Shown: positions 2,400-54,492 of the stretch, in pieces
Layout: each line of letters begins with the position of its first letter
Numbering within the stretch: position 1 is the first letter of the stretch
NCBI GenBank assembly: GCA_017435465.1
Contig: JAFSEX010000005.1
Coordinates: 70,793-134,792 of the forward strand
Direction: 5' to 3'
DNA length: 64,000 nucleotides
Source: Bacilli bacterium
GTDB taxonomy: Bacteria > Bacillota_I > Bacilli_A > RF39 > UBA660
Notes under the pieces: generated by a model
Database searches by the model: none
Seen by the model: only the letters and a program-made list of their open reading frames with translations
Told to the model about the DNA's origin: nothing
Translations under genes and position numbers: made by a program

Positions 2400-4651
2400 T
2401 AAATATGAGTAAATTTTATCCAAAAAGAAAATCAACTGATGAAATAAGAGAGTTATCTATAGAAGATGGCTCTTTTATTGTAAATCATGAAACAGGAGAA
2501 ATGTATATAGATTATGAGGAAAAAAGAATACTTGTAGGTAAAGGAGCACCAGGTTATACACCAGTAAAAGGAAAAGATTATTATACTCAAGAAGAGAAAG
2601 AAGAATTCATAGAAGATATAAATAGTTCAATTGATATTGTAACATCAAAAAATGATGTATCTGGAGAAACAATAACAATAGAAGATGCATTAGAAAGTAG
2701 ATTATTAGATTTAAAAATAGAAGGTAAAAGCGAGCAAGAAACTAGAAGTGGTAAGAATTTATTAAATATAGACGGTTTAAGAACAAGTGAAGGTCTAACT
2801 AATGAAACAAGTGACACAATAATAAATATTAGTGGAACATCAACAAATAATTATTCAAGTTTAACAAAAACAATAACACAAAACATTCCAATAGGAACTT
2901 ATACTTTTTCTATTAAAGAAGCAATATCAGTTGATATAGCTTTAGCCTTAATTTATAGTGATGAAACTCAAGATGATATTATCATTAATGTTGGTAATAC
3001 ATCTAAAACTTTTACTACTACAAAAGAAATTATAAACTATAGATTATACATAAGAACAAAAAGCGGAACAATATATAATTTTAAAGTATACCCTATGTTA
3101 GAAAGTGGAAGTGTTTCAACGGAATACGAACCATACGGTGTAATGCCTAGTCCTGATTATCCAAGTGAAATAAAAAGTGTAGGATATACTAATTTATTTG
3201 ATAAAGATAATGCACCTATTATTGATGCTTTTACACAAGGCTCAAGTGGAACAATAGTAACAAGTGGTACTTCAAAATTAAGTTATATAGAATGTAAACC
3301 AAATACAACATATATAGCTCAAAAAATAAGTGGAAATAAATTTTGTTTAAGTTATTCTAATCAAAAACCTGCAATAGGAACATCTTTTAGTGGGAGAGTA
3401 ATTGATAATACTGGAACTATAATTACTATAACAACAGATAATAATGCTAAATATTTAATAATTGAATACTATGACAGAGATAATGATGAACAAGCAATAT
3501 TAAATAGTATTCAAATAAAAGAAAGCTCAATAGCACACAATTATATTCCATATAACAAATATGGAATAGATGTTAATGTTACTGGTAAGAATTTGTATAA
3601 TTATAAGGACACTAATACAGTAACTGATGGAATTATTGTTGATGAAGACGGTTGGATAACAATAAGTTTTGATAACACAGAAGGGACTTCAGACAAATAT
3701 TTGAACTATTACACAAATAGCTTAAATTTAAAATCATCAACAAAATACAATATAATAACTGAAGTAAAAAATGTAAGTGGTTCAGGAACATTATTTTCAA
3801 CATCTGCTTATGCAGGACAAAGTCAAATGTTAAACTCGATTGAAAAATCTTTTGAAAATTTAAAAGGTATTAGTATTTTTAATGGGATTATTTCAACAGT
3901 TAAAAATCCTAGCAATGCAATAAGAGGATTGAGGACTTTGGTGCGATTTAGTGCAGGAGAAAGTGGCTCTATAACATTTAGAATTTCAGTATTAGAAGAT
4001 ACTTCTATTACATCTGTTAATTTTAAATATGAACATTATAAATCAAATAAAACTCAATTAATATTAAATGAACCACCAAGAAGTTTACCAAATGAAGTAA
4101 AAGATGAAACATATATAGAAAATGGTAAATTATATATTAAACGAAAAGTAGGTAGAGTTGTTTTAGATGGTAGTGAGGATTGGAATAAAAGTTCAAACAC
4201 ATCATCAGATCGATTTTATTTAGATAATTCTTCATTTAATATGGTGACAAGAAGTGGTGGTTATTCAAATTATTTTATAAATTCAACTACAGTAGTAGCC
4301 GATATAGGAAAATATTATACAAATGTAAATCAAATAGTTATTAATTTTTCAACATATAATACTACAACTTTACAGCAATTTAAAACATGGTTATCTCAAA
4401 ACAATGTAGAAGTAATATATGAATTAGCAGAACCTACAATAGAAGAAATAGGAATAGTATCTCCATATACTTATGACGGTGTAAACCATATAAGTGTAGA
4501 TGGAGGATTCCCAACTGTTTTTGATATTAAGTATGCACAAGATGTTAAAGTACTACTTTCAGATTATTATACAAAAGAAGAAGTAGATAAACTTATTGCT
4601 GATGTCAAATCTCTATTAGAAACAAATACAACAAATGAGGAATCAACATAG
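2390..4651 (+). CDS. Phage tail fibre / receptor-binding protein (modular)
   Basis: 753 aa, overlapping the upstream stop. It shares module-boundary motifs with the 5644-7296 product: PDYPSEIKSVG vs TPETPIEIKSVG, GKNLYNYK vs GKNLINYK, LNEPPRSLP vs LNEPLRKAG. It sits upstream of the lysis cassette. Confidence 0.6.
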   Translation: MDVINMSKFYPKRKSTDEIRELSIEDGSFIVNHETGEMYIDYEEKRILVGKGAPGYTPVKGKDYYTQEEKEEFIEDINSSIDIVTSKNDVSGETITIEDALESRLLDLKIEGKSEQETRSGKNLLNIDGLRTSEGLTNETSDTIINISGTSTNNYSSLTKTITQNIPIGTYTFSIKEAISVDIALALIYSDETQDDIIINVGNTSKTFTTTKEIINYRLYIRTKSGTIYNFKVYPMLESGSVSTEYEPYGVMPSPDYPSEIKSVGYTNLFDKDNAPIIDAFTQGSSGTIVTSGTSKLSYIECKPNTTYIAQKISGNKFCLSYSNQKPAIGTSFSGRVIDNTGTIITITTDNNAKYLIIEYYDRDNDEQAILNSIQIKESSIAHNYIPYNKYGIDVNVTGKNLYNYKDTNTVTDGIIVDEDGWITISFDNTEGTSDKYLNYYTNSLNLKSSTKYNIITEVKNVSGSGTLFSTSAYAGQSQMLNSIEKSFENLKGISIFNGIISTVKNPSNAIRGLRTLVRFSAGESGSITFRISVLEDTSITSVNFKYEHYKSNKTQLILNEPPRSLPNEVKDETYIENGKLYIKRKVGRVVLDGSEDWNKSSNTSSDRFYLDNSSFNMVTRSGGYSNYFINSTTVVADIGKYYTNVNQIVINFSTYNTTTLQQFKTWLSQNNVEVIYELAEPTIEEIGIVSPYTYDGVNHISVDGGFPTVFDIKYAQDVKVLLSDYYTKEEVDKLIADVKSLLETNTTNEEST

Positions 4652-7627: not shown

Positions 7628-7641
7628 GAAAGGTGATATTT

Positions 7642-7911
7642 ATGAAAATAAATTGGTTAGTAAGAATTAAAAACCCACTATTTTGGGTACAAATAGGCAT
7701 AGCTATATTAATGCCTATTTTAGCTTATTTAGGGCTATCAGTAGAAGATTTAACTACTTGGGGTAAAGTAGGACAAGTTTTATTAGAAGCAGTAGCAAAT
7801 CCTTACGTATTAGGTCTAGTAATAGTATCAGTATTTAATGCTATACAAGACCCAACTACAAAAGGATTATCAGATAGTGTAAATGCACTAACTTATACAG
7901 AACCAAAATAG
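7642..7911 (+). CDS. Phage holin (phiLC3/LL-H-like family)
   Basis: The sequence MKINWLVRIKNPLFWVQIG...DPTTKGLSDSVNALTYTEPK matches the conserved ends of phiLC3-type holins as I recall them. It has two hydrophobic segments. RBS AGAAAGG precedes the ATG at 7642; the ORF track's 7633 start is a GTG inside the RBS. It is directly upstream of the endolysin. Confidence 0.75.
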   Translation: MKINWLVRIKNPLFWVQIGIAILMPILAYLGLSVEDLTTWGKVGQVLLEAVANPYVLGLVIVSVFNAIQDPTTKGLSDSVNALTYTEPK

Positions 7912-7927
7912 AAAGAAGGAATTAAAT

Positions 7928-8848
7928 ATGGTTAAAATAAGACAAAATTTATTACCAGAAAGTTTATATAGTTGGAAGAGTCCTTATTCTATGACTCCAA
8001 CAAGAATAGTAGTACATAACACAGCAAATGATGCTTCAGCAGAAAATGAAATAAAATATATGCATAGAGATAAATCAAACGGTGTTCAAACATCATTTCA
8101 CTATGCAGTTGATGATATTGAGGCAGTTCAAGGATTACCTGAAAATAGAAATGGATGGCATGCAGGTGATGGTTCTAAAGGAAAAGGTAATCGTGAAGGA
8201 ATAGGAATTGAAATTTGTTATTCTAAATCAGGTGGAGATAAATTTATTAAAGCCGAACAAAATGCTGTTGAATTAATTGTAGATATTCTAAAAAGATATG
8301 GCTGGGGGATAGACAAAGTAACTAAACATCAAGATTATGCAAAAAAATATTGTCCACACAGAACTTTAGACATGGGTTGGAATAGATTTCTAGACATGAT
8401 TAGAACTAAATTAAATGAGAATACAGAAATAATTGCCCCTAAGAAAGTAATTGGAATAGTTGCTGATATTCAACGTGGATATAATGCAAAATGGGGTGGA
8501 TTTTTAGGAACTATCGAAGTTGATAACATTGCAGGAAATGATACTAAAAAACATTTGATAAAAGCATTGCAATATGAAATGAATTTGCAATATGGTTGTA
8601 AGTTAGATGTAGATGGTTCATTTGGTCCAAAAACAAAAGCACAATTCTTAAGTCTTAAACAAGGTGTTAAAGGTAATATTACATGGTTATGCCAAGCAAG
8701 ATTATACATAAAAGGTTATAATCCTAATGGATTAGACCACATTTATGGAAGTGGTATGAAAGCATGTGTTAAACAATATCAAAAAGATAAAAAATTAGAA
8801 GTAGATGGTATTTTAGGAAAAAATACTGCATATAGTTTATTTAATTAA
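7928..8848 (+). CDS. Endolysin: N-acetylmuramoyl-L-alanine amidase (Amidase_2/PGRP type) with two C-terminal peptidoglycan-binding repeats
   Basis: IVVHNTANDASAENEIKYM...FHYAVDD...GWHAGDG is typical of amidase_2. The C-terminus has two PG_binding_1-like repeats (LDVDGSFGPKTKAQ, LEVDGILGKNTAYSL). Confidence 0.9.
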   Translation: MVKIRQNLLPESLYSWKSPYSMTPTRIVVHNTANDASAENEIKYMHRDKSNGVQTSFHYAVDDIEAVQGLPENRNGWHAGDGSKGKGNREGIGIEICYSKSGGDKFIKAEQNAVELIVDILKRYGWGIDKVTKHQDYAKKYCPHRTLDMGWNRFLDMIRTKLNENTEIIAPKKVIGIVADIQRGYNAKWGGFLGTIEVDNIAGNDTKKHLIKALQYEMNLQYGCKLDVDGSFGPKTKAQFLSLKQGVKGNITWLCQARLYIKGYNPNGLDHIYGSGMKACVKQYQKDKKLEVDGILGKNTAYSLFN

Positions 8849-8851
8849 TAA

Positions 8852-8880
8852 AGGCTAGTCTTCGGACTAGCTCTTTTTTG
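8852..8880 (+). terminator. Intrinsic terminator after the endolysin gene
   Basis: GCTAGTC-ttcg-GACTAGC stem followed by TCTTTTTT. Confidence 0.8.
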
Positions 8881-8942
8881 TTGCTTTTTTATTAAAAAAA
8901 GAAGTAATTTATACTTTAATGTGTTTATTATATATTAAGGAT

Positions 8943-8970
8943 TTGACAAAATAAAAAAACATGCTATAAT
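8943..8970 (+). promoter_or_regulatory. Sigma-A-type promoter for the prophage cargo transcript
   Basis: TTGACA (8943-8948), a 16-nt spacer ending in TGC (extended -10), then TATAAT (8965-8970). Confidence 0.6.
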
Positions 8971-9130
8971 ATACCCTACATTAAAAGAAAAACACAAAAA
9001 AATGTAAATAATTGTAAAATTATTATAAAAATTATTGTATTTTTCACATTTTAATGTTAAATTTAAATTGTCAGTACTAACTGACAAAAAGAAACAAAAT
9101 AATTAAAAACATCATGTTTTAATTGTTGTA

Positions 9131-9271
9131 GAGCAGTTTGTAGGGTGTAAATTTTCTTCTTGCACCAACGCTCATTTATGAGTTTGAGTAGGTTTAACCG
9201 AAAGTATACATGTAGGACTGGGAGACTACCAAATTGCTCAAATTAAGCCTATATCATTGATATAGGCTTTA
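9131..9271 (+). ncRNA. Structured leader / candidate cis-regulatory RNA upstream of the 9289 ORF
   Basis: A long-range helix pairs GAGCAGTTTGTAG (9131-9143) with CTACCAAATTGCTC (9226-9239). It encloses hairpins GGTGT..GCACC and CTCA-ttta-TGAG and three GTAGG motifs. A 10-bp hairpin AAGCCTATAT/ATATAGGCTT (9244-9269) follows, just before the RBS. There is no ORF and no match to a riboswitch class I recognise. Confidence 0.35.
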
Positions 9272-9288
9272 AATTTGAAGGTGATATT

Positions 9289-9705
9289 ATGGCAAAGAAA
9301 AAAGGAAAAATAATAAAAATCGTAGGTCGTATAGATAAAAAGATTTGCGATGATTATGGGATTACAAATTATAAAAATACAGTAATAGTTCAATCGTTAG
9401 ATTTTTATGCACATGTAACTAAACATATTAAGGATTTTCAAAGTGTTGATAGTTATAATAATACTATTACTAATATTGATTATATTATTAAAAAGCCCCT
9501 TTTTGTATATCACGACGCATCTAAAAATTCTTTGTTATATTATTCTGAAATTGGAGATGAATACGTTTGTTTAGTAGTTAAATTATTTGAAAAAAAAGAT
9601 AACTATGTAGCAACCGTTTATCCTGTTAGTCAATCAAAAATAGAAAAAATGAGAGGAAAAAGTTTGATACAAAAATATTCTAAAAAAGAAAAAGTAACTG
9701 AGTAA
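9289..9705 (+). CDS. Prophage cargo protein, PBECR-type (Barnase/EndoU/ColicinE5-D/RelE-like) nuclease candidate
   Basis: 138 aa with RBS GAAGGTGA. The layout matches my recollection of PBECR-family phage and plasmid proteins: GRIDKKICDDYG..., then VIVQSLDFYAHVTKHIKDF, then IIKKPLFVY, then a YVCLVVKL..YVATVYPV beta-core. Not verified by HMM. Confidence 0.4.
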   Translation: MAKKKGKIIKIVGRIDKKICDDYGITNYKNTVIVQSLDFYAHVTKHIKDFQSVDSYNNTITNIDYIIKKPLFVYHDASKNSLLYYSEIGDEYVCLVVKLFEKKDNYVATVYPVSQSKIEKMRGKSLIQKYSKKEKVTE

Positions 9706-10064: not shown

Positions 10065-10138
10065 TGGAGCAGATGATGGGAATCGAACCCACGCAGTCAG
10101 CTTGGAAGGCTGAGGTTCTACCATTAAACTACATCTGC
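10065..10138 (-). tRNA. tRNA-Gly (anticodon UCC)
   Basis: The reverse complement reads GCAGATGTAGTTTAATGGTAGAACCTCAGCCTTCCAAGCTGACTGCGTGGGTTCGATTCCCATCATCTGCTCCA. It has a cloverleaf, a GGTTCGATTCC T-arm, the anticodon loop CTTCCAA and an encoded CCA. Confidence 0.9.
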
Positions 10139-22894: not shown

Positions 22895-24847
22895 ATGGAA
22901 AATAAATATAACGGACTTAATGATAAAGAAGTTATAAAAAATCAGCAATTATATGGATTAAATATATTAAACAATGATAAAAATAATAACTTATTAGAAA
23001 TAATTAAAAATCCTATGATAATCATATTAATATTAATAATTATTCTATACATTATGTTAAATCAAAAATTAAATGCATTAATCCTTGGAATATTAACAAT
23101 ATTAATAATTGTTATTGAATTGTTACAAAAAAATAAAATTCAAAAATTATCAAAAATATTAAAAGAAAACTCGGATTCATTATATACAGTAATTAGAAAT
23201 TCTAAACAAATAAAAATTAAAAGTGAAGAAGTAACCATAGATGATATTTTATTACTAAAAGAAGGTGATAAAGTAATAGTAGATGGTATAATTTTGGAAA
23301 GCAATAATTTAAAAGTAATTGAAAAAGTAATAACAAAAAATGATAATTCTATTAAAAAAAGTATTGATTTAATTAATAAAGATGCCAAATATAAAAGTAA
23401 TTATTTATATGCCGGAACAATTATAACTAATGGATATGCAACTATTAAAGTAATAAATATAGGAAATCAAACTGAATATGCGAAAATTAATAAGAAAAAT
23501 AAAAATTTAATTGAACTTAAAATAGCTAAAATGAATAAACTTATTAATATATTTGCACTAATAAGTTTAATATTTGTATCAATATTGTTAGGATTTAAAA
23601 ATAGTAATTTCAAACTAGGAATACTGTTAGGTTTAACTAGTGCAATTTCAATTTTACCACTTAATTTACCACTAACAGTATCTCTATTTGCTACATTTAA
23701 TATATATAATTTTTATAAAAACAATATACTTATAAAGGATTTATCCATTATAAAAAAATTAAATTTAATTACATATTTATGTATTGATAAATCTAAATTT
23801 ATTACTAAAGGTAAATTAGAAATAAAAGATATATACACTTCATTAACAACAATTGATTATGTAGAAAAACTTTTATTTGCAAAAGAAAACAAAAAAAACA
23901 ATCAAATAGAAAAGGCAATTATTGATTATGGAAATATTTTAGGAATTCAAAATATAAATGAAGATTATGAATTAATAAAAACATATCCATTTACTAATGA
24001 AAGTAAATTGAATGCTAATGTGTATAAAAAGGATGATGAATATTATATATTTGTAAAAGGAAGTTTAGAAAGTTTATTTGATATATGTAATTTAGATGTA
24101 GAAGAAAAATACGAATTACATAATTTACAAAAAAAATTATCTAAAAAGGGATTAGAAATTGTTGCTTCGGGTTCAAAAAAAATAAAAAAAATTGAAGATG
24201 ATATTTTTGATTATAGAATTAATTTTGATGGATTAATAATCCTTCATGATAAAATAAATGAAAATATGAAAGTAAATATCGAAACTCTAAAAAATTATGA
24301 TATAAAAACAATAATGTTAAGCAAAGATAATAAAGAGATATCTAGTGTAGTAGGTAAACAAATAAATCTTAATAACTACAATAATATTATAAATGGAAAA
24401 GAATTAGATAAAATTAATGATGATGAATTAAATAGTATAATTAAAAACATAGGTATATTTTCTAATGTAAAACCAAAACACAAATTAAGAATAATTAACT
24501 CATTAAAAATTAATAATGAATTTATTGGAGTTACTGGATATGAAACAAGTGATATAGAAATGCTTAATAGATCAGATATAAGTATATCAATGGGTAATAA
24601 TATTTCAAAAAATATAACAGATATAACTATAATGGATGATAATTTTGAAACATTTGTAAATACTATTAAAGAATCAAAAAAATTATATAATAATATTAAA
24701 AAGATATTAAAGACAATATTACCAACTTATATTATCACAATATTGTTTGTATTAAGTATATTAATAGTTAAACCAATATATTCATTACCAATTTATATTA
24801 TTATTTTAAAAATAATTATCAATACAATATTAAATAACAAAAAATAG
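22895..24847 (+). CDS. P-type ATPase homologue with degenerate catalytic motifs (probable pseudo-enzyme)
   Basis: The N-terminus (GLNDKEVIKNQQLYGLNIL) and overall order of segments match Ca2+/cation P-type ATPases. The signature motifs are altered: TKND for TGES, DKSKFITKG for DKTGTLT, LSKDN for TGDN, GYETSD for GDGxND. Confidence 0.75.
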   Translation: MENKYNGLNDKEVIKNQQLYGLNILNNDKNNNLLEIIKNPMIIILILIIILYIMLNQKLNALILGILTILIIVIELLQKNKIQKLSKILKENSDSLYTVIRNSKQIKIKSEEVTIDDILLLKEGDKVIVDGIILESNNLKVIEKVITKNDNSIKKSIDLINKDAKYKSNYLYAGTIITNGYATIKVINIGNQTEYAKINKKNKNLIELKIAKMNKLINIFALISLIFVSILLGFKNSNFKLGILLGLTSAISILPLNLPLTVSLFATFNIYNFYKNNILIKDLSIIKKLNLITYLCIDKSKFITKGKLEIKDIYTSLTTIDYVEKLLFAKENKKNNQIEKAIIDYGNILGIQNINEDYELIKTYPFTNESKLNANVYKKDDEYYIFVKGSLESLFDICNLDVEEKYELHNLQKKLSKKGLEIVASGSKKIKKIEDDIFDYRINFDGLIILHDKINENMKVNIETLKNYDIKTIMLSKDNKEISSVVGKQINLNNYNNIINGKELDKINDDELNSIIKNIGIFSNVKPKHKLRIINSLKINNEFIGVTGYETSDIEMLNRSDISISMGNNISKNITDITIMDDNFETFVNTIKESKKLYNNIKKILKTILPTYIITILFVLSILIVKPIYSLPIYIIILKIIINTILNNKK

Positions 24848-24924
24848 ATTTACATTTATATTTGTTTACTATATAATATTAATTGATAATAGGAATACAG
24901 TTCTTATATAAGAGGAGGGAAAAA

Positions 24925-25578
24925 ATGAAAGATACTAGAAAAATATTATTTGTATCACTATTAACAGCACTATTAATATTTTCAAATATTGTAGCTATAA
25001 AAATGACAGTGGTTGCTAAATTACCATTACCATGTAGTATATTTATATATCCATTTACATTCTTATGTGTAGCAGTTATATCAGATTTATATGGAACACA
25101 AACAGCAATAAAAAGTGTATGTTTTGCAGTATTGGCTCAAGTACTACTAACAATAGTAGGAACAATAATTGTTAATTTAGATAATCAAGTTTCAACATTA
25201 GTAGAAGCGAATGCATTACAACAAATTTTAGCACCAATTGAACAAAATGGTATATATATGCCAAATGTTAAAGTTTTATTTGCATCTATACTTGGATTTT
25301 CCGTATCACAATTAGTAAATATTGGAATATATACATTTGTTAAAAATTTAACATTTAGACCAATTGCTTGTGCATTATCTATTTTAATAGCTATAATGAT
25401 TGATACAATTATATATGTACCAATTTCAACAATTGGAACTGCAGATGTTAATCTTACTTTAACAATACTTAATAAATTTGTAGTAGGTGTAATTATTACA
25501 TTTATCTCAGTTGTATTATTTAGTATTTTTACAATTGGTAAGAAAGAACCAGAAAAAAAGGTTAAAGCAAAAGCTTAA
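24925..25578 (+). CDS. YhhQ/VUT-family transporter (queuosine-precursor transporter family)
   Basis: Polytopic membrane protein. The N-terminus (LLIFSNIVAIKM...IFIYPFTFLCVAVISDLYG) is typical of the YhhQ/DUF165 family. The start is at 24925, after RBS GAGGAGGG. Confidence 0.75.
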   Translation: MKDTRKILFVSLLTALLIFSNIVAIKMTVVAKLPLPCSIFIYPFTFLCVAVISDLYGTQTAIKSVCFAVLAQVLLTIVGTIIVNLDNQVSTLVEANALQQILAPIEQNGIYMPNVKVLFASILGFSVSQLVNIGIYTFVKNLTFRPIACALSILIAIMIDTIIYVPISTIGTADVNLTLTILNKFVVGVIITFISVVLFSIFTIGKKEPEKKVKAKA

Positions 25579-26138
25579 CCTTTTTTTATGTCCTTAACAG
25601 GATGAACATAGTGTATTATTGTTCCAGCAAAATATATAATTTCTGTACATTTTTTAATTGCAAATTTTTTGCCGATAGCTTTACCACCAACAGTTAAAGA
25701 TGCAATAGCAGCACTTACTACAAGACCAACAATAATAAGATCTAAATTCAAGATATTACTTATATTAAGTGATAACAGTGCTCCAATAGAACCACTAATT
25801 ACCCCACACATATCTCCAATAACATCGTTACAAATATTAGAAACTTGTGGAGCGTTTCTAACTAACATAATTGATTCCTTAGCACCTTTATGTTTTTTAG
25901 CTGCTTTAGCATGGAATGGTGCTTCAGTTGCAGATGCTACTGCCATACCAATAAGGTCAAATAAAACCCCAATAAGAATAATAGCAATTAATACTATTGT
26001 TGCAAAAAACATATTTAATTTAACGACTACAGTATTAGATATACCACCAAATATTAGTGATAATAAAAATGTTATTAGAAAGGCTTGCCACAGCCAATTA
26101 TTTTTTTTCTTTTTATTATTTTTTGATTTTTTTTTCAT
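25575..26138 (-). CDS. Small 4-TM membrane protein with a poly-Lys N-terminus; OapA-like by context
   Basis: 187 aa. MKKKSKNNKKKKNNW is followed by four hydrophobic segments. RBS AAGGAAG. It lies directly downstream of and co-oriented with the large ORF-free RNA candidate. The OapA assignment rests on synteny only. Confidence 0.5.
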   Translation of the reverse strand: MKKKSKNNKKKKNNWLWQAFLITFLLSLIFGGISNTVVVKLNMFFATIVLIAIILIGVLFDLIGMAVASATEAPFHAKAAKKHKGAKESIMLVRNAPQVSNICNDVIGDMCGVISGSIGALLSLNISNILNLDLIIVGLVVSAAIASLTVGGKAIGKKFAIKKCTEIIYFAGTIIHYVHPVKDIKKG

Positions 26139-26164
26139 TCATATCTTCCTTATTAATATATAAA

Positions 26165-26731
26165 AAAAACATGCATGGTAACACAATAAGTAAATTTTGC
26201 GGCTTAGGTCCAGTCGGATTTCCCTATTTCCTACCGTTTGTTACCTCACGGCGATTTCTCTTTAAAGGAAACAACTAAATGTCACCATTTTAGCTACTCG
26301 ATTACCACTTAGTCCACACTTCAATCCTTAACGTGTCTGCAAGAGTTATGCAACATTCTAGAGGTTTTCCCAAACAAAGTCTTCAACTATACTTATTCGT
26401 TTTTGCAAAATTAATTTCAAAACCCATAGCTAAACTCGATGGCCGTCAAATTTAGTATTATAAACCGTTTATTCCTTAATTTCACTCACGACAGGCTACA
26501 TGATATATAGTACTCTCTATATATATGGAATTACTAACTAGTAGTAAAAGGCCAAAAATAAGGCAATTAGCTATATGCCATTATAACGTCACCTTAAATT
26601 TATAAACTTAATAATATCACCCTAACCTGGGCGGAAAAAGCAATACTACCAAGTGCCAATTGTGTGCCCTTTGATGGATTTTTAGGCCCACCTTTGCATA
26701 GTAACTTTGACTAGAATAATGCACCACACAT
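26165..26731 (-). ncRNA. Large (~565 nt) structured ncRNA candidate; OLE-RNA-like by size and synteny
   Basis: No RBS-preceded ORF. Local G+C is well above the surroundings (30/60 at 26201-26260). A consensus promoter sits at the 5' edge. The 3' end has nested helices (GGUAACA/UGUUACC enclosing CGG-UAGG/CCUA-CCG) followed by U8. The class is not confirmed. Confidence 0.5.
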
Positions 26732-26737
26732 GCACTC

Positions 26738-26766
26738 ATTATACCAAATATTAGAAAAAAAGTCAA
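26738..26766 (-). promoter_or_regulatory. Consensus sigma-A promoter driving the large ncRNA
   Basis: On the minus strand: TTGACT (rc of 26761-26766), an exact 17-nt spacer, then TATAAT (rc of 26738-26743). Confidence 0.65.
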
Positions 26767-26879
26767 AAATGAGAAAATTGGGGAAAGTTTTTTCTGAAGT
26801 ACAACACTACAAAATTGAAAAAGACACATGAATAATTTATAATTTTTTTGCTTACAAAGAAAGAAAATTCAATCCTTAG

Positions 26880-28749: not shown

Positions 28750-28889
28750 ATAAATCTTCCTTTCATAAATATATTATATAACTTTATATGCTAAATTTCA
28801 AAAAAAATAATAAGTAATAGACAATTATTTGTTTTTTTTATATACTAGTAATAGTTATATTAAAATATAGGAGGGTAGTTAATTTTATT

Positions 28890-29040
28890 ATAATAAGCGC
28901 CTGGACTTTTAAAGTTGACGAGGATAGTAGTTATCGAAATACTCGGCGGATGCTACTACGGGACTAGGATACTCGTAAAATATATATTTAAAATGCAAAA
29001 TATTTTATTGCTACAAAGGTATATATTAAATCCACATTTT
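28890..29040 (+). ncRNA. glmS ribozyme (GlcN6P-responsive self-cleaving riboswitch)
   Basis: The core strings A|GCGCC (cleavage site at about 28896/28897), GTTGACGAGGATAGTAGTTATCGAAATACTCGGCGGATGCTACTACGGG match the conserved glmS core (GACGAGG..UAUCGAA..CGGCGGAUGC). It lies directly upstream of glmS. The 3' extent is approximate. Confidence 0.85.
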
Positions 29041-29075: not shown

Positions 29076-30902
29076 ATGTGTGGCATTGTAGGTTATGTAG
29101 GCAAAAATAAAAATGCACTACATGTTTTAATTGATGGCTTAAAAGCCTTAGAATATAGAGGGTATGATTCAGCTGGAATTGCTGTTATAAATGATGATAA
29201 AATAAAAATAGTAAAATCACATGGAAAGATTAAAAATTTAGAAGAAAAATTAAATGAAGTTGATAATTCTTATATAGGGATTGGTCATACTAGATGGGCA
29301 ACTCATGGAAAACCAACAGAAGTAAATGCCCATCCACATAAAGCTGGTAGTGTAACTTTAGTTCATAATGGAATAATTGAAAATTATGAAGAATTAAAAA
29401 AGGATTTAAGAAAACAGGGATATAAATTTAAATCAGAAACAGATACAGAAATTGCTTGTGCATTAATTGATAGTATTTATAAAACATCAAACAATAAATT
29501 GTTAACTCTTAAAAAAGCTAATGAAATGATTAAAGGATCGTTTGCTTTTGGAATAATATTTGATAATGATATAAATAATATTTATTCAATGAGAAAGGAT
29601 AGTCCACTAATAATAGCTTTAGGAGATAATGAAAATTATATTGCATCAGATGTTCCAGCAATTCTATCGTTTACTAATAAATATATTCTTTTAGATAGTA
29701 ATGAATATGCAGTAATAAGTGAAGATAAAATTGATATATATGATAATAATCTTAATTTAATTAATAAAGATATAAAAGAATATGAAGGTACAAAAGAAGT
29801 GGTTATGAAAAATGGTTATGAGCATTTTATGTTGAAAGAAATACATGATGAACCAAAAGTAATAGAAAATACTTTTAAACAATTTATTAAAAATAATGAT
29901 ATTAATGAATTAATTGATAATATGCCAGATTTAAGTAAGTATGATAACATTGACATAGTTGCGTGTGGAAGTGCATATCATGCTGGATTGATAGGTAAAA
30001 GTTTAATAGAAAAATTTGCAGATATTCCAGTAAATGTAGAATTAGCAAGTGAATATAGATACAAAAAAAACTTTAATAATGAAAAAACTTTAACTATATT
30101 AGTATCACAATCCGGTGAAACTGCAGATACACTTGCAGCACTAAGAAAAGCTAAACAAAATGGAACTTACACACTAGGAATTATAAATGTTGTGGGTTCT
30201 TCGATTGCTCGTGAAGCGGATAGTGTTTTATATATTAAAGCAGGATGTGAAATAGCAGTTGCTACTACTAAAGCATATTTAGCGCAAGTTTTAATATTAT
30301 CACTTATTACAATTAACAAAGCAATATCAAATAATAATATTTCAAAAGAAAAAGCAAAACTAATCTTAGAAGATTTAAAGAAACTTCCAAACATGATTGA
30401 TGATTTAATTAAAGAAAAAGAGAAATTTGAAATTATAGCTAAAAATATTTATAAAGATAATAACATATTTTTTATTGGTAGGGGTGTAGACTATGCGATA
30501 AGTATGGAAGGGTCTTTAAAACTAAAAGAAATATCTTACATTAATTCACAAGCTTATGCAGCTGGTGAATTAAAGCATGGAACAATTTCATTAATAGAAA
30601 ATGGTACTCCAGTTGTCGCAGTTGTTACTGATGAAAATATTGCTGAAAAAACTATAAGTAACATCAAAGAAACAAAAGCACGTGGCGCAAATGTTATTTT
30701 AATAACAACTCAAAAACTAAATGAAAAATATGGTGATTCAGATTTTTATGATCAAAAAATTGTTATTCCAAATATTAGTGAATTTTTTACACCAATATTA
30801 GCAATAGTTCCATTGCAATTAATAGCATATGAAGTTGCTAAATTAAGAGGGGAGAATATCGATCAACCACGTAATTTAGCAAAATCTGTTACAGTGGAAT
30901 AA
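29076..30902 (+). CDS. glmS: Glutamine--fructose-6-phosphate aminotransferase
   Basis: The N-terminus is MCGIVGY. It has two SIS domains and the C-terminal RNLAKSVTVE. 608 aa. Confidence 0.95.
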   Translation: MCGIVGYVGKNKNALHVLIDGLKALEYRGYDSAGIAVINDDKIKIVKSHGKIKNLEEKLNEVDNSYIGIGHTRWATHGKPTEVNAHPHKAGSVTLVHNGIIENYEELKKDLRKQGYKFKSETDTEIACALIDSIYKTSNNKLLTLKKANEMIKGSFAFGIIFDNDINNIYSMRKDSPLIIALGDNENYIASDVPAILSFTNKYILLDSNEYAVISEDKIDIYDNNLNLINKDIKEYEGTKEVVMKNGYEHFMLKEIHDEPKVIENTFKQFIKNNDINELIDNMPDLSKYDNIDIVACGSAYHAGLIGKSLIEKFADIPVNVELASEYRYKKNFNNEKTLTILVSQSGETADTLAALRKAKQNGTYTLGIINVVGSSIAREADSVLYIKAGCEIAVATTKAYLAQVLILSLITINKAISNNNISKEKAKLILEDLKKLPNMIDDLIKEKEKFEIIAKNIYKDNNIFFIGRGVDYAISMEGSLKLKEISYINSQAYAAGELKHGTISLIENGTPVVAVVTDENIAEKTISNIKETKARGANVILITTQKLNEKYGDSDFYDQKIVIPNISEFFTPILAIVPLQLIAYEVAKLRGENIDQPRNLAKSVTVE

Positions 30903-51545: not shown

Positions 51546-51884
51546 ATGCTTAATATCACAACTTTAACAGGTCGAATTGTTAAAACACCAGAACTTAGAA
51601 AAACTGAAAGTGGTAAAAATGTTACAAACATAACAATAGCAGTTCCACGACCATTCAAAAATCCAAATGGAGAATATGAAACTGATTATATTGAGTGTAC
51701 ACTATGGGCTGGTTTAGCAGAAACTGCAACTACATATTGTAAACAAGGTGATTTAGTTGGAATTAAGGGTAGATTACAAACTACTCAATTAGAAAAAGAA
51801 AATTGTCCTAAAATTACAATGATTCAATTAATTGTAGAAAAATTATCGTTTTTAGCTAGTAAAAAACAAGAAGAAGCAGAGTAA
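51546..51884 (+). CDS. ssb: Short single-stranded DNA-binding protein lacking the acidic C-terminal tip (SsbB-like)
   Basis: The OB-fold N-terminus (MLNITTLTGRIVKTPELRKTESG) and WAGLAE...GDLVGIKGRLQT are present. It is 112 aa and ends ..KKQEEAE without a DDDLPF-type tail. Confidence 0.8.
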   Translation: MLNITTLTGRIVKTPELRKTESGKNVTNITIAVPRPFKNPNGEYETDYIECTLWAGLAETATTYCKQGDLVGIKGRLQTTQLEKENCPKITMIQLIVEKLSFLASKKQEEAE

Positions 51885-51925
51885 ATTTGCTTCTTCTTAA
51901 TAATAGTGATTGGAGTTGAAAGGGA

Positions 51926-52704
51926 ATGTGTAATTTAAAGATTAATTATGATGTATTTGAAAGTATTAAACATGTTGATGAAAATGAATATGAATATTGG
52001 GAAGCAAGAGAAATACAAAAAATATTAGGATATAAAGAATGGAGAAAATTCGAAAATGTCATAACAAAAGCTAAAAAATCTTGTGAAAATAGTAATCAAT
52101 TTACTTATAACCATTTTGTCAACATTGACAAAATGGTAGAGATAGGTTCTAACACACATAGAAAAATATTAAATTATAAATTATCTAGATATGCTTGTTA
52201 TTTAATTGCACAAAATGGAGATTCAAAAAAGAAAACAATTGCTCTTGCGCAAACTTATTTTGCTATTCAAACAAGAAAAATGGAAATAAGTGAAAAAGAA
52301 TATTCTAAGTTAACTGAAGATGAAAAAAGACTTTATCAAAGAAATTTAACCAAAAAGGGAATTTATCGTTAAATCAAGTGGCAAAGAAGTCTGGAGTTAA
52401 AAATTTTGATAAATTTCATAATTTTGGATATAAAGGATTATATAATGGGATGACTGCTAATGATATTGCAAAAAGAAAAGATTTAAGATATAGAGAAGAT
52501 ATTTTGGATAATATGGGGAGTGATGAATTAATTATTAATTTATTTAGAATTTCTCAAACAGAACAAAAGTTACAAAAAGATAATGTTAAAATGGAAAACA
52601 ATGCTAATATGACTCATTATATGGTTGGTAGTAAAATAAGGAATACAATAAAAGAATTAGGCGGAATTTTACTAGAAGATTTGAAAACTCCTGATAAAAG
52701 TTAA
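51926..52704 (+). pseudogene. dinD: DNA-damage-inducible protein D homologue, split by a frameshift
   Basis: FESIKHVDENEYEYWEAREIQKILGYKEWRKFENVI...YKLSRYACYLIAQNGD matches DinD as I recall it. The frame breaks at ACCAAAAAGGG (about 52350-52365) and continues in another frame as ..NLSLNQVAKKSGVKNFDKFHNFGYKGLY. Confidence 0.7.
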
Positions 52705-53334
52705 AACAGATAGAAAAAAAACTATCTTTTAAATAGGAATAAACTAGATTAATAATTATATTTTAGCGCTAACAAAAAATAAGAAACAAAGTGATTTGCC
52801 TCTTATTGTATAAATCAACAAACAATTGTTTAATTTAATTTTCCACTAATTTTTTAACTCTTTTTTACTTATAAATTTTCTTTTTATATTCTTTTTTAAT
52901 AATAACTTTTCAAAAGAAATTAAATTGTCATCAACCATCACAAAATCTTCATTCATTTTTACATCACTTATATTATCACTGCTTTTAATTTCTTTTTTAT
53001 TATTTTTTATACTTAAATCAACATAAGTATAATCAGTTTTTTTATAAAGTAATGTACGTTTTTAAAATTTATATTATAAATCGTACTAGATAAAGATAAC
53101 GGTGCATAATATGATCCATATATAAATTTTTCTTTATCAAATGTATATATATCACCAATAAATAATTTATTTAAATTCATTTTTTCCATCAATCCTTTTA
53201 TTAAATTAATAATCAAATATATAAGAGTTGTACAAAGTATAATATAATAAGATTTATAAAAAATCAATAATATATAAAATTTATTTTAAACTATTAATTA
53301 CAAACTTCAAACTAAAAATAAAAGAAGATATTAT

Positions 53335-53550
53335 TTAATCTTCTTTTTCTTCATAGTTTTTTAAATCTTCGTAAAATAATTCATCGGGTTTCATGTTAAA
53401 TATTTTAGAAATCTTAATTGCCATAGTATAAGATAATCTTCTACGGCCATTTTCAATTTGCCAATAGAAAGTTTTACTTATACCAAGATTGTTTGCCATT
53501 TGTTGATAAGAATATTTTGCGTTTTTTCTAAGTTCCATTAGTTTACTCAC
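53335..53550 (-). CDS. XRE-family helix-turn-helix regulator (71 aa)
   Basis: YSYQQMANNLGISKTFYWQIENGRR is an HTH_XRE pattern. The gene is divergent from the next XRE gene. Confidence 0.8.
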   Translation of the reverse strand: MSKLMELRKNAKYSYQQMANNLGISKTFYWQIENGRRRLSYTMAIKISKIFNMKPDELFYEDLKNYEEKED

Positions 53551-53695
53551 AATTAACTCACCACCTACAAGTATTATAAAAGAAAATACTACGAAAAATC
53601 AATACTTTTGTTACTTTTTAGTTAATTTTATGCGTGTTACAAATAAAGAACAGTATAATATCATTAACAAATAGATAACTAAAGAGGTGAATAAT

Positions 53696-54052
53696 ATGTT
53701 TAATGGGCGTGTATTAAAAGAGTTAAGGCTTAGTGCTGGATTAACACAACAACAGTTAGGTGATTTAGTAAATGTAACAAAAGTTTCAATCTGTGGATAT
53801 GAAAAAAACAATAGAATTCCAAATTTAGAAACATTAATGGATTTAGCAGAAGTATTAAATACAACACCAAATCATTTATTAGGAGTAGAAGAATTAGTTA
53901 CTATAAATGAAGATAAAGAAGAATATCAAGTTGCTATTTCTAAAAAAGATATAGAAATTATAAAACACCTTAAAAAACATCTTAATTTATATAATATGTT
54001 ATGTGAAAATCCAAGAAAGGTAATAGATAATATAAGTAAAAAATTTAATTAG
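53696..54052 (+). CDS. XRE-family regulator with a C-terminal helical domain, paralogue A
   Basis: LKELRLSAGLTQQQLGDLVNVTKVSICGYEKN is the HTH. The start is at 53696 (MFNGR), after RBS AAAGAGG, matching the paralogue B start MFDGR. Confidence 0.8.
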   Translation: MFNGRVLKELRLSAGLTQQQLGDLVNVTKVSICGYEKNNRIPNLETLMDLAEVLNTTPNHLLGVEELVTINEDKEEYQVAISKKDIEIIKHLKKHLNLYNMLCENPRKVIDNISKKFN

Positions 54053-54135
54053 TTTGCTCTAGGTTAATTTTTGACAAAATAATATACTATTTGTGTACAA
54101 TTAAATTAACAAATGGATAACTAGGAGGAATTTGT

Positions 54136-54492
54136 ATGTTTGATGGTAGAATTGTAAAGGAATTACGAACAAATTTGGGATTGACACAACAACAATTAGG
54201 AGATTTAATTGGTGTAAATAAGGCATCAATCTGTGGATACGAAAAAAATACAAAAAAACCCAAATATGCTAATTTAATTAAATTGTCTGTGGCACTAAAC
54301 ACAACACCAAACCATTTAATGGGTATGGAACAAACTGTTACAATAAACGAAGATACTGAAGAATATCAAGTTGCTATTTCTAAAAAGGATATTGAAATTA
54401 TAAAAGCCATCAAAAAGAATTATGAACTGTATGAAAAATTTTGTGAAAATCCAAAAAGAATAGTTGATAAACTTACTAGAATACTTAAATAG
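54136..54492 (+). CDS. XRE-family regulator with a C-terminal helical domain, paralogue B
   Basis: Roughly two-thirds identical to paralogue A by eye. A ~45-nt stretch is nearly identical at the DNA level (gaagaatatcaagttgctatttctaaaaa...). The two share the 5'-UTR motif ATTAACAAATRGATAACTA. Confidence 0.8.
   Translation: MFDGRIVKELRTNLGLTQQQLGDLIGVNKASICGYEKNTKKPKYANLIKLSVALNTTPNHLMGMEQTVTINEDTEEYQVAISKKDIEIIKAIKKNYELYEKFCENPKRIVDKLTRILK

Follow-up and report, generated by a model that had tools for sequence, protein, structure and literature searches.

What is encoded by the stretch of unusually high G+C, free of open reading frames (ORFs), that lies directly upstream of a gene for a small, lysine-rich membrane protein in an uncultured Bacilli bacterium? 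The window analysed here, the whole stretch of 64,000 nucleotides (nt) from contig JAFSEX010000005.1 (positions 70,793 to 134,792), carries this region on its minus strand. The original prediction had offered two answers, namely an OLE RNA followed by the gene for its membrane partner OapA in a very AT-rich lineage or, failing that, an unclassified large structured RNA. Our analysis bears out the first. The region is almost certainly an ole-oapA cassette, consisting of the OLE RNA and then the gene for the membrane anchor OapA, as indicated by an end-to-end match to the OLE model with oapA downstream. The two genes are placed as follows.

26159..26743, minus strand: ole gene (OLE RNA, RF01071), placed by the Rfam match and by covariation in the clade.
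25575..26138, minus strand: oapA, encoding a predicted four-helix membrane protein of 187 residues with a Lys-rich N-terminus.

An Rfam scan of the whole window matched RF01071 (OLE RNA) at 26159-26743 (minus strand) with 309.1 bits and an E value of 4.6e-87. This is six times the gathering score of 50 bits, and the match spans model positions 1-616 of 616. Its length is 585 nt, and it takes in the -10 box of the promoter and a few tail bases beyond the predicted RNA, which would run for ~570 nt from ~26732 to 26162. In the parsed Rfam alignment, this copy has standard pairs at 114 of the 129 consensus pairs that can be aligned, with 12 non-standard and 3 deleted, and 189 of the 238 highly conserved (upper-case) consensus nucleotides are identical (79%). 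An OapA protein identical to that of the window is recorded at NCBI in a 'Bacilli bacterium' metagenome-assembled genome (MAG) as well as in ruminant gut metagenome assemblies, and the former record places the host within the Bacillota, as expected for OLE, which typically occurs there in anaerobes or extremophiles.

These results bear on the second answer, a new, unclassified large RNA with its own basic membrane partner. Such an RNA would be in keeping with the lack of a direct Pfam or NCBIfam family for the 187-residue protein, and with a score of 309 bits that falls well below the 420-520 bits of full-length OLEs. It is contradicted by the end-to-end match and its score, by the identity of the conserved nucleotides, and by a continuous series of relatives that connects the window copy to canonical OLE/OapA loci. 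On these grounds the alternative of an unclassified RNA is ruled out, its probability being close to nil. The OLE RNA found here is real, was correctly interpreted in the original prediction and is of a kind already known, OLE having been described since 2006. Nothing about it is categorically new, and what novelty there is, itself slight, lies in the clade-specific details of this copy.

The composition that had drawn attention to the region was confirmed. The segment 26201-26260 contains exactly 30 G+C in 60 positions, as had been counted, and the RNA stretch as a whole reaches 35.2% G+C against 24.3% for the window. Only 0.08% of 585-nt segments (step 25 nt) attain this value, and the maximum of 35.4% falls at the OLE locus. 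As was claimed for an ORF-free RNA, no minus-strand ORF of at least 30 residues begins within the predicted transcript; the sole overlapping ORF on that strand (26617-26829, 70 residues) begins upstream of the promoter. This ORF and the antisense ORFs were rejected as spurious, since they overlap the promoter or the structured RNA.

Conservation and covariation are both strong among the relatives of this locus. Close relatives were gathered by exact-protein look-ups, and a single-protein metagenome scan gave 10 loci. The clade alignment comprises the window copy and the homologous RNAs of ten relatives whose OapA is 52-90% identical, drawn from contigs of genomes and metagenomes; the consensus structure was projected on it together with an added P1 and two small hairpins. 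The sources are ruminant and other gut metagenomes, and the copy itself is a slimmed-down OLE from an uncultured, very AT-rich gut bacterium. Across the 11 members, 88% of the cells are paired, compared with 36-44% after displacement of the partners by 1-3 columns, and 65 of 150 pairs have changed on both sides; none of 500 shuffles reached the observed values on any measure. These pairing and covariation statistics show that the OLE fold is actively maintained in this AT-rich lineage.

The anatomy of the RNA was resolved stem by stem. The stem names are our own mapping of the text of two studies (PMC12265935 and PMC12286853) onto the Rfam structure, and the elements are given here from 5' to 3' of the RNA.

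26723..26732, minus strand: 5' strand of P1, CAUGUGUGGU, which pairs with 26179-26170 in 10 standard pairs and closes the whole RNA.
26673..26692, minus strand: P4 hairpin with the A-rich loop CUAAAAAU (model positions 54-73), 100% paired and with an invariant loop in the clade.
26653..26662, minus strand: J4a/5 (kink-turn strand, OapC site), where the consensus AUCGAUGAAG is replaced by CAAUUGGCAC.
26607..26653, minus strand: P5/P5.1 hairpin with the loop CGCCCAG at 26633-26627 (helix 3, 11 pairs changed on both sides).
26554..26603, minus strand: P6/P6.1 hairpin with the conserved loop AAUGGCAU at 26582-26575.
26531..26547, minus strand: mini-P7, a hairpin of 6 base pairs (bp), UUACUA-CUAGU-UAGUAA, in place of the ~44-nt P7 of the family.
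26503..26524, minus strand: mini-P8, an 8-bp A-U stem with an AGAGUA loop, in place of the ~36-nt P8.
26397..26492, minus strand: P9 long arm (model positions 286-383), essentially full length, with covariation in helices 9-12.
26274..26294, minus strand: P13 hairpin, GCUAAAAUG-GUGA-CAUUUAGU, with a GUGA (GNRA) tetraloop and a one-base 5' bulge.
26225..26273, minus strand: P14/P14.1, with the GUAA tetraloop GGUAAC at 26245-26240 (helices 19 and 20, 7 and 5 pairs changed on both sides).

Most of the family architecture is retained. In the clade, P1 (helix 1) is paired in 91.8% of the cells with 3 pairs changed on both sides, P13 (helix 18) in 95.5% with 5 such pairs, and P6.1 (helix 5) in 98%; the outer P6 (helix 4) is weak, with only 63% paired. 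P10-P12 are kept in this copy. The loops associated with dimer formation (CUAAAAAU, GCCCAG, AAUGGCAU and GGCC) are all present and are invariant or nearly so in the clade: GCCCAG in the P5.1 loop is invariant, and the palindromic GGCC loop of P9 (26446-26439 region) is nearly so. The GGCC loop of P9 forms a symmetric kissing loop in the OLE dimer (PMC12286853, PMC12265935), and we equate the A-rich-loop hairpin at 26673-26692 with P4, a dimer contact in the models from cryogenic electron microscopy, by mapping from the text of PMC12265935. In Halalkalibacterium halodurans, the GNRA tetraloop and one-base bulge of P13, a hairpin that adjoins P12.2, are required for OapB binding (PMC7936274); judged by its sequence, the P13 of this copy is an intact predicted OapB site.

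The kink-turn (k-turn) is the part that has been lost. This feature, formed by J4a/5 and J6/7, is bound by OapC (PMC12286853) and is essential in H. halodurans. In the window copy the consensus has disappeared from both strands at the base of P5 (J4a/5 with J6/7 or J5/6): seven of the nine highly conserved positions of J4a/5 (model positions 84-92) differ, and the J6/7 strand CG(Y)GGAG (CCGUGGAG) is absent and replaced. Together the two strands hold 17 of the 49 departures from conserved positions. The J4a/5 motif AUC(G/A)(A/U)UGAAG is kept, as is the J6/7 strand, in 13 of 13 aligned full-length OLEs, and both are absent from every member of the window's clade. The missing k-turn leaves membership of the OLE family intact, as it is reported to be dispensable in reduced clades. 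A Watson-Crick helix between J4a/5 and J6/7 was considered as a replacement but is not supported; with two constant G-C pairs and one pair covarying in 4 of 11 members, it is too short to serve as evidence.

P7 and P8 have been reduced rather than deleted, occupying 26 + 26 nt where the model has 44 + 36 positions, and two small hairpins stand in this region in 11 of 11 clade members. At the mini-P7 site all 11 members fold a hairpin of 3-11 bp whose stem sequences differ. Mini-P8 (helix 8) is 95% paired and nearly constant in sequence in 10 of 11. This constancy beside a freely varying mini-P7 points to a possible sequence-specific contact. The mini-P8 sequence, AUAUAUAG-AGAGUA-CUAUAUAU, was seen in near-invariant form in the window and in the loci L004, L006, L029 and L039-L048, even at ~52% OapA identity.

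Two structural proposals of the original prediction fared less well than its identification of the locus. A 3' helix had been proposed between GGUAACA and UGUUACC; the two sequences are indeed complementary (26245-26239 and 26183-26177), but in the family fold they do not pair with each other, because GGUAAC forms the P14.1 loop with its closing pair and UGUUACC the 3' strand of P12/P1, both supported by covariation. The motif AUCGAGU(UU)AGCUA had been noted as occurring twice. Both copies are present where they were reported, but they do not constitute a structural repeat: they lie in two unrelated helices, one in the 3' strand of P9 and the other in the strand leading into P13, and only the second is conserved in relatives. 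We regard the repetition as coincidental.

The reductions raise the question of whether this copy is a remnant of OLE that no longer functions and is decaying as its genome shrinks. The shortened P7/P8 and the lost k-turn consensus would suit such a view, and true decay does occur at another locus, L022. Here, however, the other helices are intact and carry compensatory changes in the clade, the intact oapA keeps its invariant motifs even in homologues of 50% identity, the promoter is kept in 11 of 11 members, and the same architecture recurs in many independent metagenomes. That the window copy is a remnant is therefore very improbable, and we continue to read it as a maintained OLE. L022 itself (Jeotgalibacillus proteolyticus NZ_JBNILO010000008.1, 2741-3441) lies in the classical ispA-ole-oapA-dxs context. 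Its OLE is a 293-nt remnant with 43 bits, below the gathering score, in which only the 5' third is kept and P9-P15 are missing, and a frameshift divides its oapA homologue between two reading frames. The locus gives the impression that ole and oapA are being lost.

The protein encoded downstream of the RNA supports the same identity. As the original prediction described it, 25575-26138 (minus strand) encodes 187 residues, starts with MKKKSKNNKKKKNNW and has four hydrophobic stretches. Direct scans with Pfam and NCBIfam gave no family match for this protein, because neither library has an OapA model, in agreement with the supplement of PMC11332333; its identity was therefore drawn from synteny, motifs, topology and fold. 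Of the 40 scanned loci with a gene for a homologue, 37 have an OLE RNA immediately before that gene and in its orientation. Among them are loci of Paenibacillus popilliae, P. alvei, P. dendritiformis and Chengkuizengella marina, where full-length OLE scores 488-520 bits. The DxxxD motif is present as D105-V-I-G-D109. Its two aspartates, together with N104 and G108, do not vary among 32 homologues, and conservation extends to the basic loop FHAKAAKKHKGAKE (residues 75-88).

The AlphaFold2 model of the protein (predicted local distance difference test score 81, predicted template modelling score 0.71) places helices at residues 15-39, 43-69, 96-130 and 134-162, and the hydropathy peaks agree on four, the number expected of OapA, a protein of ~20 kDa. 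The N-terminus carries a net charge of +8, the loop 70-96 one of +4 and the C-terminus one of +5, and by the positive-inside rule this basic cluster would face the cytoplasm. The top four Foldseek matches (7m1t_B, 7m1t_A, 7m1u_A and 7cff) are all membrane domains of CNNM/CorB/CorC proteins, with probability 1.0 and template modelling (TM) scores of 0.48-0.54. The best PDB match of the family profile is CorB 7M1T/7M1U (E 0.3), a weak Pfam CNNM (PF01595) match was obtained for 22 of 32 homologues, and no CBS or CorC domains were found in OapA here. The modelled fold appears CNNM-like, as published for H. halodurans OapA (PMC11332333), where DxxxD is a distinctive feature of OapA that is absent from CNNM domains and the closest solved structure is CorB 7M1U. 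The predicted product thus fits every in-silico criterion for OapA and belongs to the CNNM-like OapA family rather than to an unrelated transporter. Two loci in Clostridia MAGs (L021 and L024) encode OapA-like proteins of 36-39% identity, and the 3 kb flanking each side yielded no OLE match at E <= 1. Either these OapA-like proteins are orphans or ole is located elsewhere.

The cassette also carries the signals expected of a separately transcribed RNA followed by a translated gene.

26738..26766, minus strand: sigma-70-type promoter, with the -35 element TTGACT at 26766-26761, a 17-nt spacer and the -10 element TATAAT at 26743-26738.
26746-26745, minus strand: extended -10 TG at the end of the 17-nt spacer.
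26179-26170 and 26169-26162, minus strand: 3' strand of P1, ACCAUGCAUG, and U8, a terminator-like 3' end of the RNA.
26145..26151, minus strand: ribosome-binding site AAGGAAG, read from the sequence and separated from the oapA ATG by 6 nt.

The promoter of the original prediction is present, with 11 of 12 consensus matches and the TG of an extended -10. In the 2 kb that were scanned, one other site scores equally well (11/12) and none better, and that second site has no TG motif. Promoter-like sites are common in this AT-rich DNA, with 16 found and 13 expected. Yet in 11 of 11 clade members TTGAC-N17/18-TATAAT closely precedes the conserved GUGGUGCA, and the -10 is in most cases preceded by TGn, so that the OLE RNA has its own conserved promoter. 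Transcription is predicted to start near 26733-26731.

At the other end of the RNA, the predicted run of U8 at 26162-26169 was found, and U7-8 directly follows P1 in 8 of 11 clade members. P1 and U8 may act as a leaky terminator, which would stop most transcripts as free OLE RNA in excess and supply oapA mRNA by read-through. Between U8 and the start codon of oapA lie 23 nt, which hold only the ribosome-binding site; sites of the AAGGA/GAGG type also precede oapA in relatives. In L047 (~1466-1500), a canonical hairpin terminator, AAAGUGCC-UAUA-GGCACUUUUUUU, lies between OLE and the oapA ribosome-binding site and replaces P1 and U8, which suggests that termination between ole and oapA is itself selected.

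This arrangement invites a further alternative, that the RNA is not an independent, stable species but a long structured leader whose sole action, in cis, is to control oapA translation or transcription. No separate oapA promoter is evident in the 23-nt gap, so the oapA mRNA must carry OLE at its 5' end, and a terminator-like element lies between the two. The OLE RNA of H. halodurans, however, is an abundant, discrete and membrane-localised RNA (PMC12265935), and the dimer loops and OapB site conserved here would be unneeded by a simple leader. A role confined to cis is accordingly one to which we assign little probability, and an OLE RNA acting as a particle with OapA remains our interpretation.

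How such a particle would work is transferred from H. halodurans and from two Clostridium OLE RNAs. In H. halodurans, OLE binds OapA, OapB, OapC and bS21 at the membrane (PMC12265935), and its functions are treated further in PMC9723947 and PMC11332333. By analogy, the OLE RNA of the window would pair with a second copy of itself by contacts of the A-rich P4 loops, the loops of P5.1 and P6.1 and the palindromic loop of P9, and OapA dimers would hold this homodimer at the membrane by their basic cytoplasmic surfaces. OapA proteins are expected to bind OLE RNA cooperatively, at ~2:1, and deletion of OLE to give stress phenotypes. The particle may help the cell to cope with excess Mg2+, cold, short-chain alcohols and poor carbon sources. 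As the OapC site is unrecognisable, the composition of the clade particle must differ, and a particle without OapC is predicted. OapA could be a divalent-cation transporter related to MpfA/CorB, with the RNA as a stand-in for the CBS and CorC regulatory modules, a proposal we hold with somewhat less than even confidence. That OLE spans the membrane is a published hypothesis.

Nothing weighs against the identity of the locus as OLE/OapA, but several points count against the account just given. Its mechanistic statements are all carried over from distant relatives, as OapA here is only ~39% identical to that of Paenibacillus. The k-turn/OapC site that is essential in H. halodurans is not recognisable in the window copy. 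The terminator role of P1 and U8 is inferred, and a terminator scan did not call them, because the stem is long-range. The locus lies outside the classical ispA-ole-oapA-dxs neighbourhood. Finally, among the ~45 window ORFs scanned, which represent 64 kb of the genome only, there is no OapB-like (KOW) or OapC-like (L7Ae/YbxF) gene.

Set beside full-length OLEs (H. halodurans, Clostridium acetobutylicum and Paenibacillus spp.), the window copy has the same P1-P15 architecture. It shares with them the A-rich P4, the GCCCA and AAUGGCAU loops, the long P9 with GGCC, the P13 GUGA loop and bulge, the GNRA loop of P14.1, the 3' ACCA with its U-tract, and oapA immediately downstream. It differs from them in being 585 nt long rather than ~600-675 nt, in its 35% G+C and lower score, in having 6-bp and 8-bp hairpins for P7 and P8, in the replacement of both k-turn strands (AUCGAUGAAG and CG(Y)GGAG), in its weak outer P6, and in having its own promoter instead of lying within a long ispA...dxs operon.

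Reduced OLEs have been described in a 2024 survey by Fernando & Breaker, which found 2,846 genome assemblies with OLE (PMC11332333). Variant 1 (TANB77-type) and variant 2 (RF39-type) occur in uncultured gut Bacillota with small genomes and without OapB and OapC; variant 1 has shortened P7/P8, a shorter P9 and often no OapB site at the end of P13, and variant 2 is without P7/P8 (PMC11332333). The full-length class of that survey scores at least 390 bits with the authors' own model (PMC11332333). The window copy is without the full-size P7 and P8 of that class, and its Rfam score of 309 stands at the boundary (310) of the authors' bands, which use their own model, so that the comparison is made by architecture only. 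Like variant 1 it has a short P7 and P8; unlike variant 1, its P9 is essentially full length and its P13 keeps the GUGA loop and bulge. It differs from variant 2 in keeping mini-P7/P8, and RNAs of the 492-nt L001 type fit variant 2 better. The aligned L001 OLE (~492 nt) is without P7, P8 and the distal P9 with its GGCC dimer loop, and the AAAGGGCACA block has likewise disappeared from it. L002, L003, L005 and L007 carry OLEs of 492-497 nt with 223-238 bits. All five of these loci, with OLE and oapA, come from 'uncultured Muribaculaceae' MAGs, which suggests that the Bacteroidota-labelled contigs are mislabelled or mis-binned Bacillota.

OapA compares in a similar way with its known counterparts. 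With the H. halodurans BH2780 family it shares a four-helix protein of ~180-200 residues, DxxxD, the basic cluster predicted to be cytoplasmic, a CorB 7M1U-like fold and a gene placed after ole. It differs in its identity of only ~39% to those Paenibacillus homologues that accompany full-length OLE and in an unusually Lys/Asn-rich N-terminal tail, disordered in the AlphaFold2 model. MpfA, CorB and CorC share the membrane-domain fold (Foldseek probability 1.0, TM ~0.5), whereas OapA is without CBS/CorC domains and has four rather than three membrane helices, DxxxD and an RNA partner (PMC11332333).

Members of the clade share a gene order of their own around the cassette: a ferritin-like/Mn-catalase-like gene precedes ole-oapA, and then come, convergent, a Vut_1 gene and that of a 650-residue P-type ATPase. 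The Vut_1 family gene (24883-25578, plus strand) is queuosine-precursor transporter-like. It shares 4 bases with oapA (minus strand) at their 3' ends (25575-25578), which leaves no room for a terminator between them. The P-type ATPase (22895-24847, plus strand; P2A-type) is closest to the Listeria Ca2+-ATPase LMCA1 and aligns only to residues 19-715 of 880, its last membrane helices (the C-terminal block) being missing. Throughout the clade this ATPase is similarly short (647-666 residues) and lies two genes away from oapA. Assignment as a Mg2+-type ATPase, which would have favoured a tie to Mg2+, was rejected, since the protein is closest to Ca2+-ATPases such as LMCA1 and falls below every equivalog cut-off. 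This neighbour gives only a generic link to cation handling.

Elsewhere in the window, a glmS ribozyme/riboswitch (RF00234, 75.5 bits) at 28885-29037 (plus strand) lies directly upstream of a GlmS-type ORF at 29076-30902 (plus strand) with SIS and glutamine amidotransferase domains, a known and ordinary arrangement ~2 kb from the OLE locus. One phage-like patch (7633-9705, plus strand) holds a holin (PF04531) and a PBECR3 nuclease domain and adjoins a tRNA at 10068-10138 (minus strand); another (51546-54492) holds a single-stranded DNA-binding protein, a Bro-N domain protein and several Cro/C1-type helix-turn-helix regulators. Both may be prophage remnants.

OLE is among the largest and best-conserved bacterial non-coding RNAs and is proposed to span the membrane as an RNA dimer, and a plain Rfam scan recovers it here at a genomic G+C of 24%. 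The clade may further represent a distinct, streamlined OLE beyond the published variants 1 and 2, with no k-turn, mini-P7/P8, a full P9 dimer arm, an OapB site, and an autonomous promoter-ole-terminator-oapA cassette that always adjoins a ferritin-like gene and stands two genes away from a C-terminally short P2A-type cation ATPase, although we advance this tentatively and think it on balance unlikely. If true, this streamlined OLE would be a natural minimal particle showing which parts are dispensable, and it would add a further genomic link to cation handling. The deletions seen in the clade separate dispensable parts of the system (the OapC k-turn and most of P7/P8) from those that are retained (the dimer loops, P9, P13 and OapA), a separation that is useful for choosing a compact, AT-rich construct in structural or heterologous studies.

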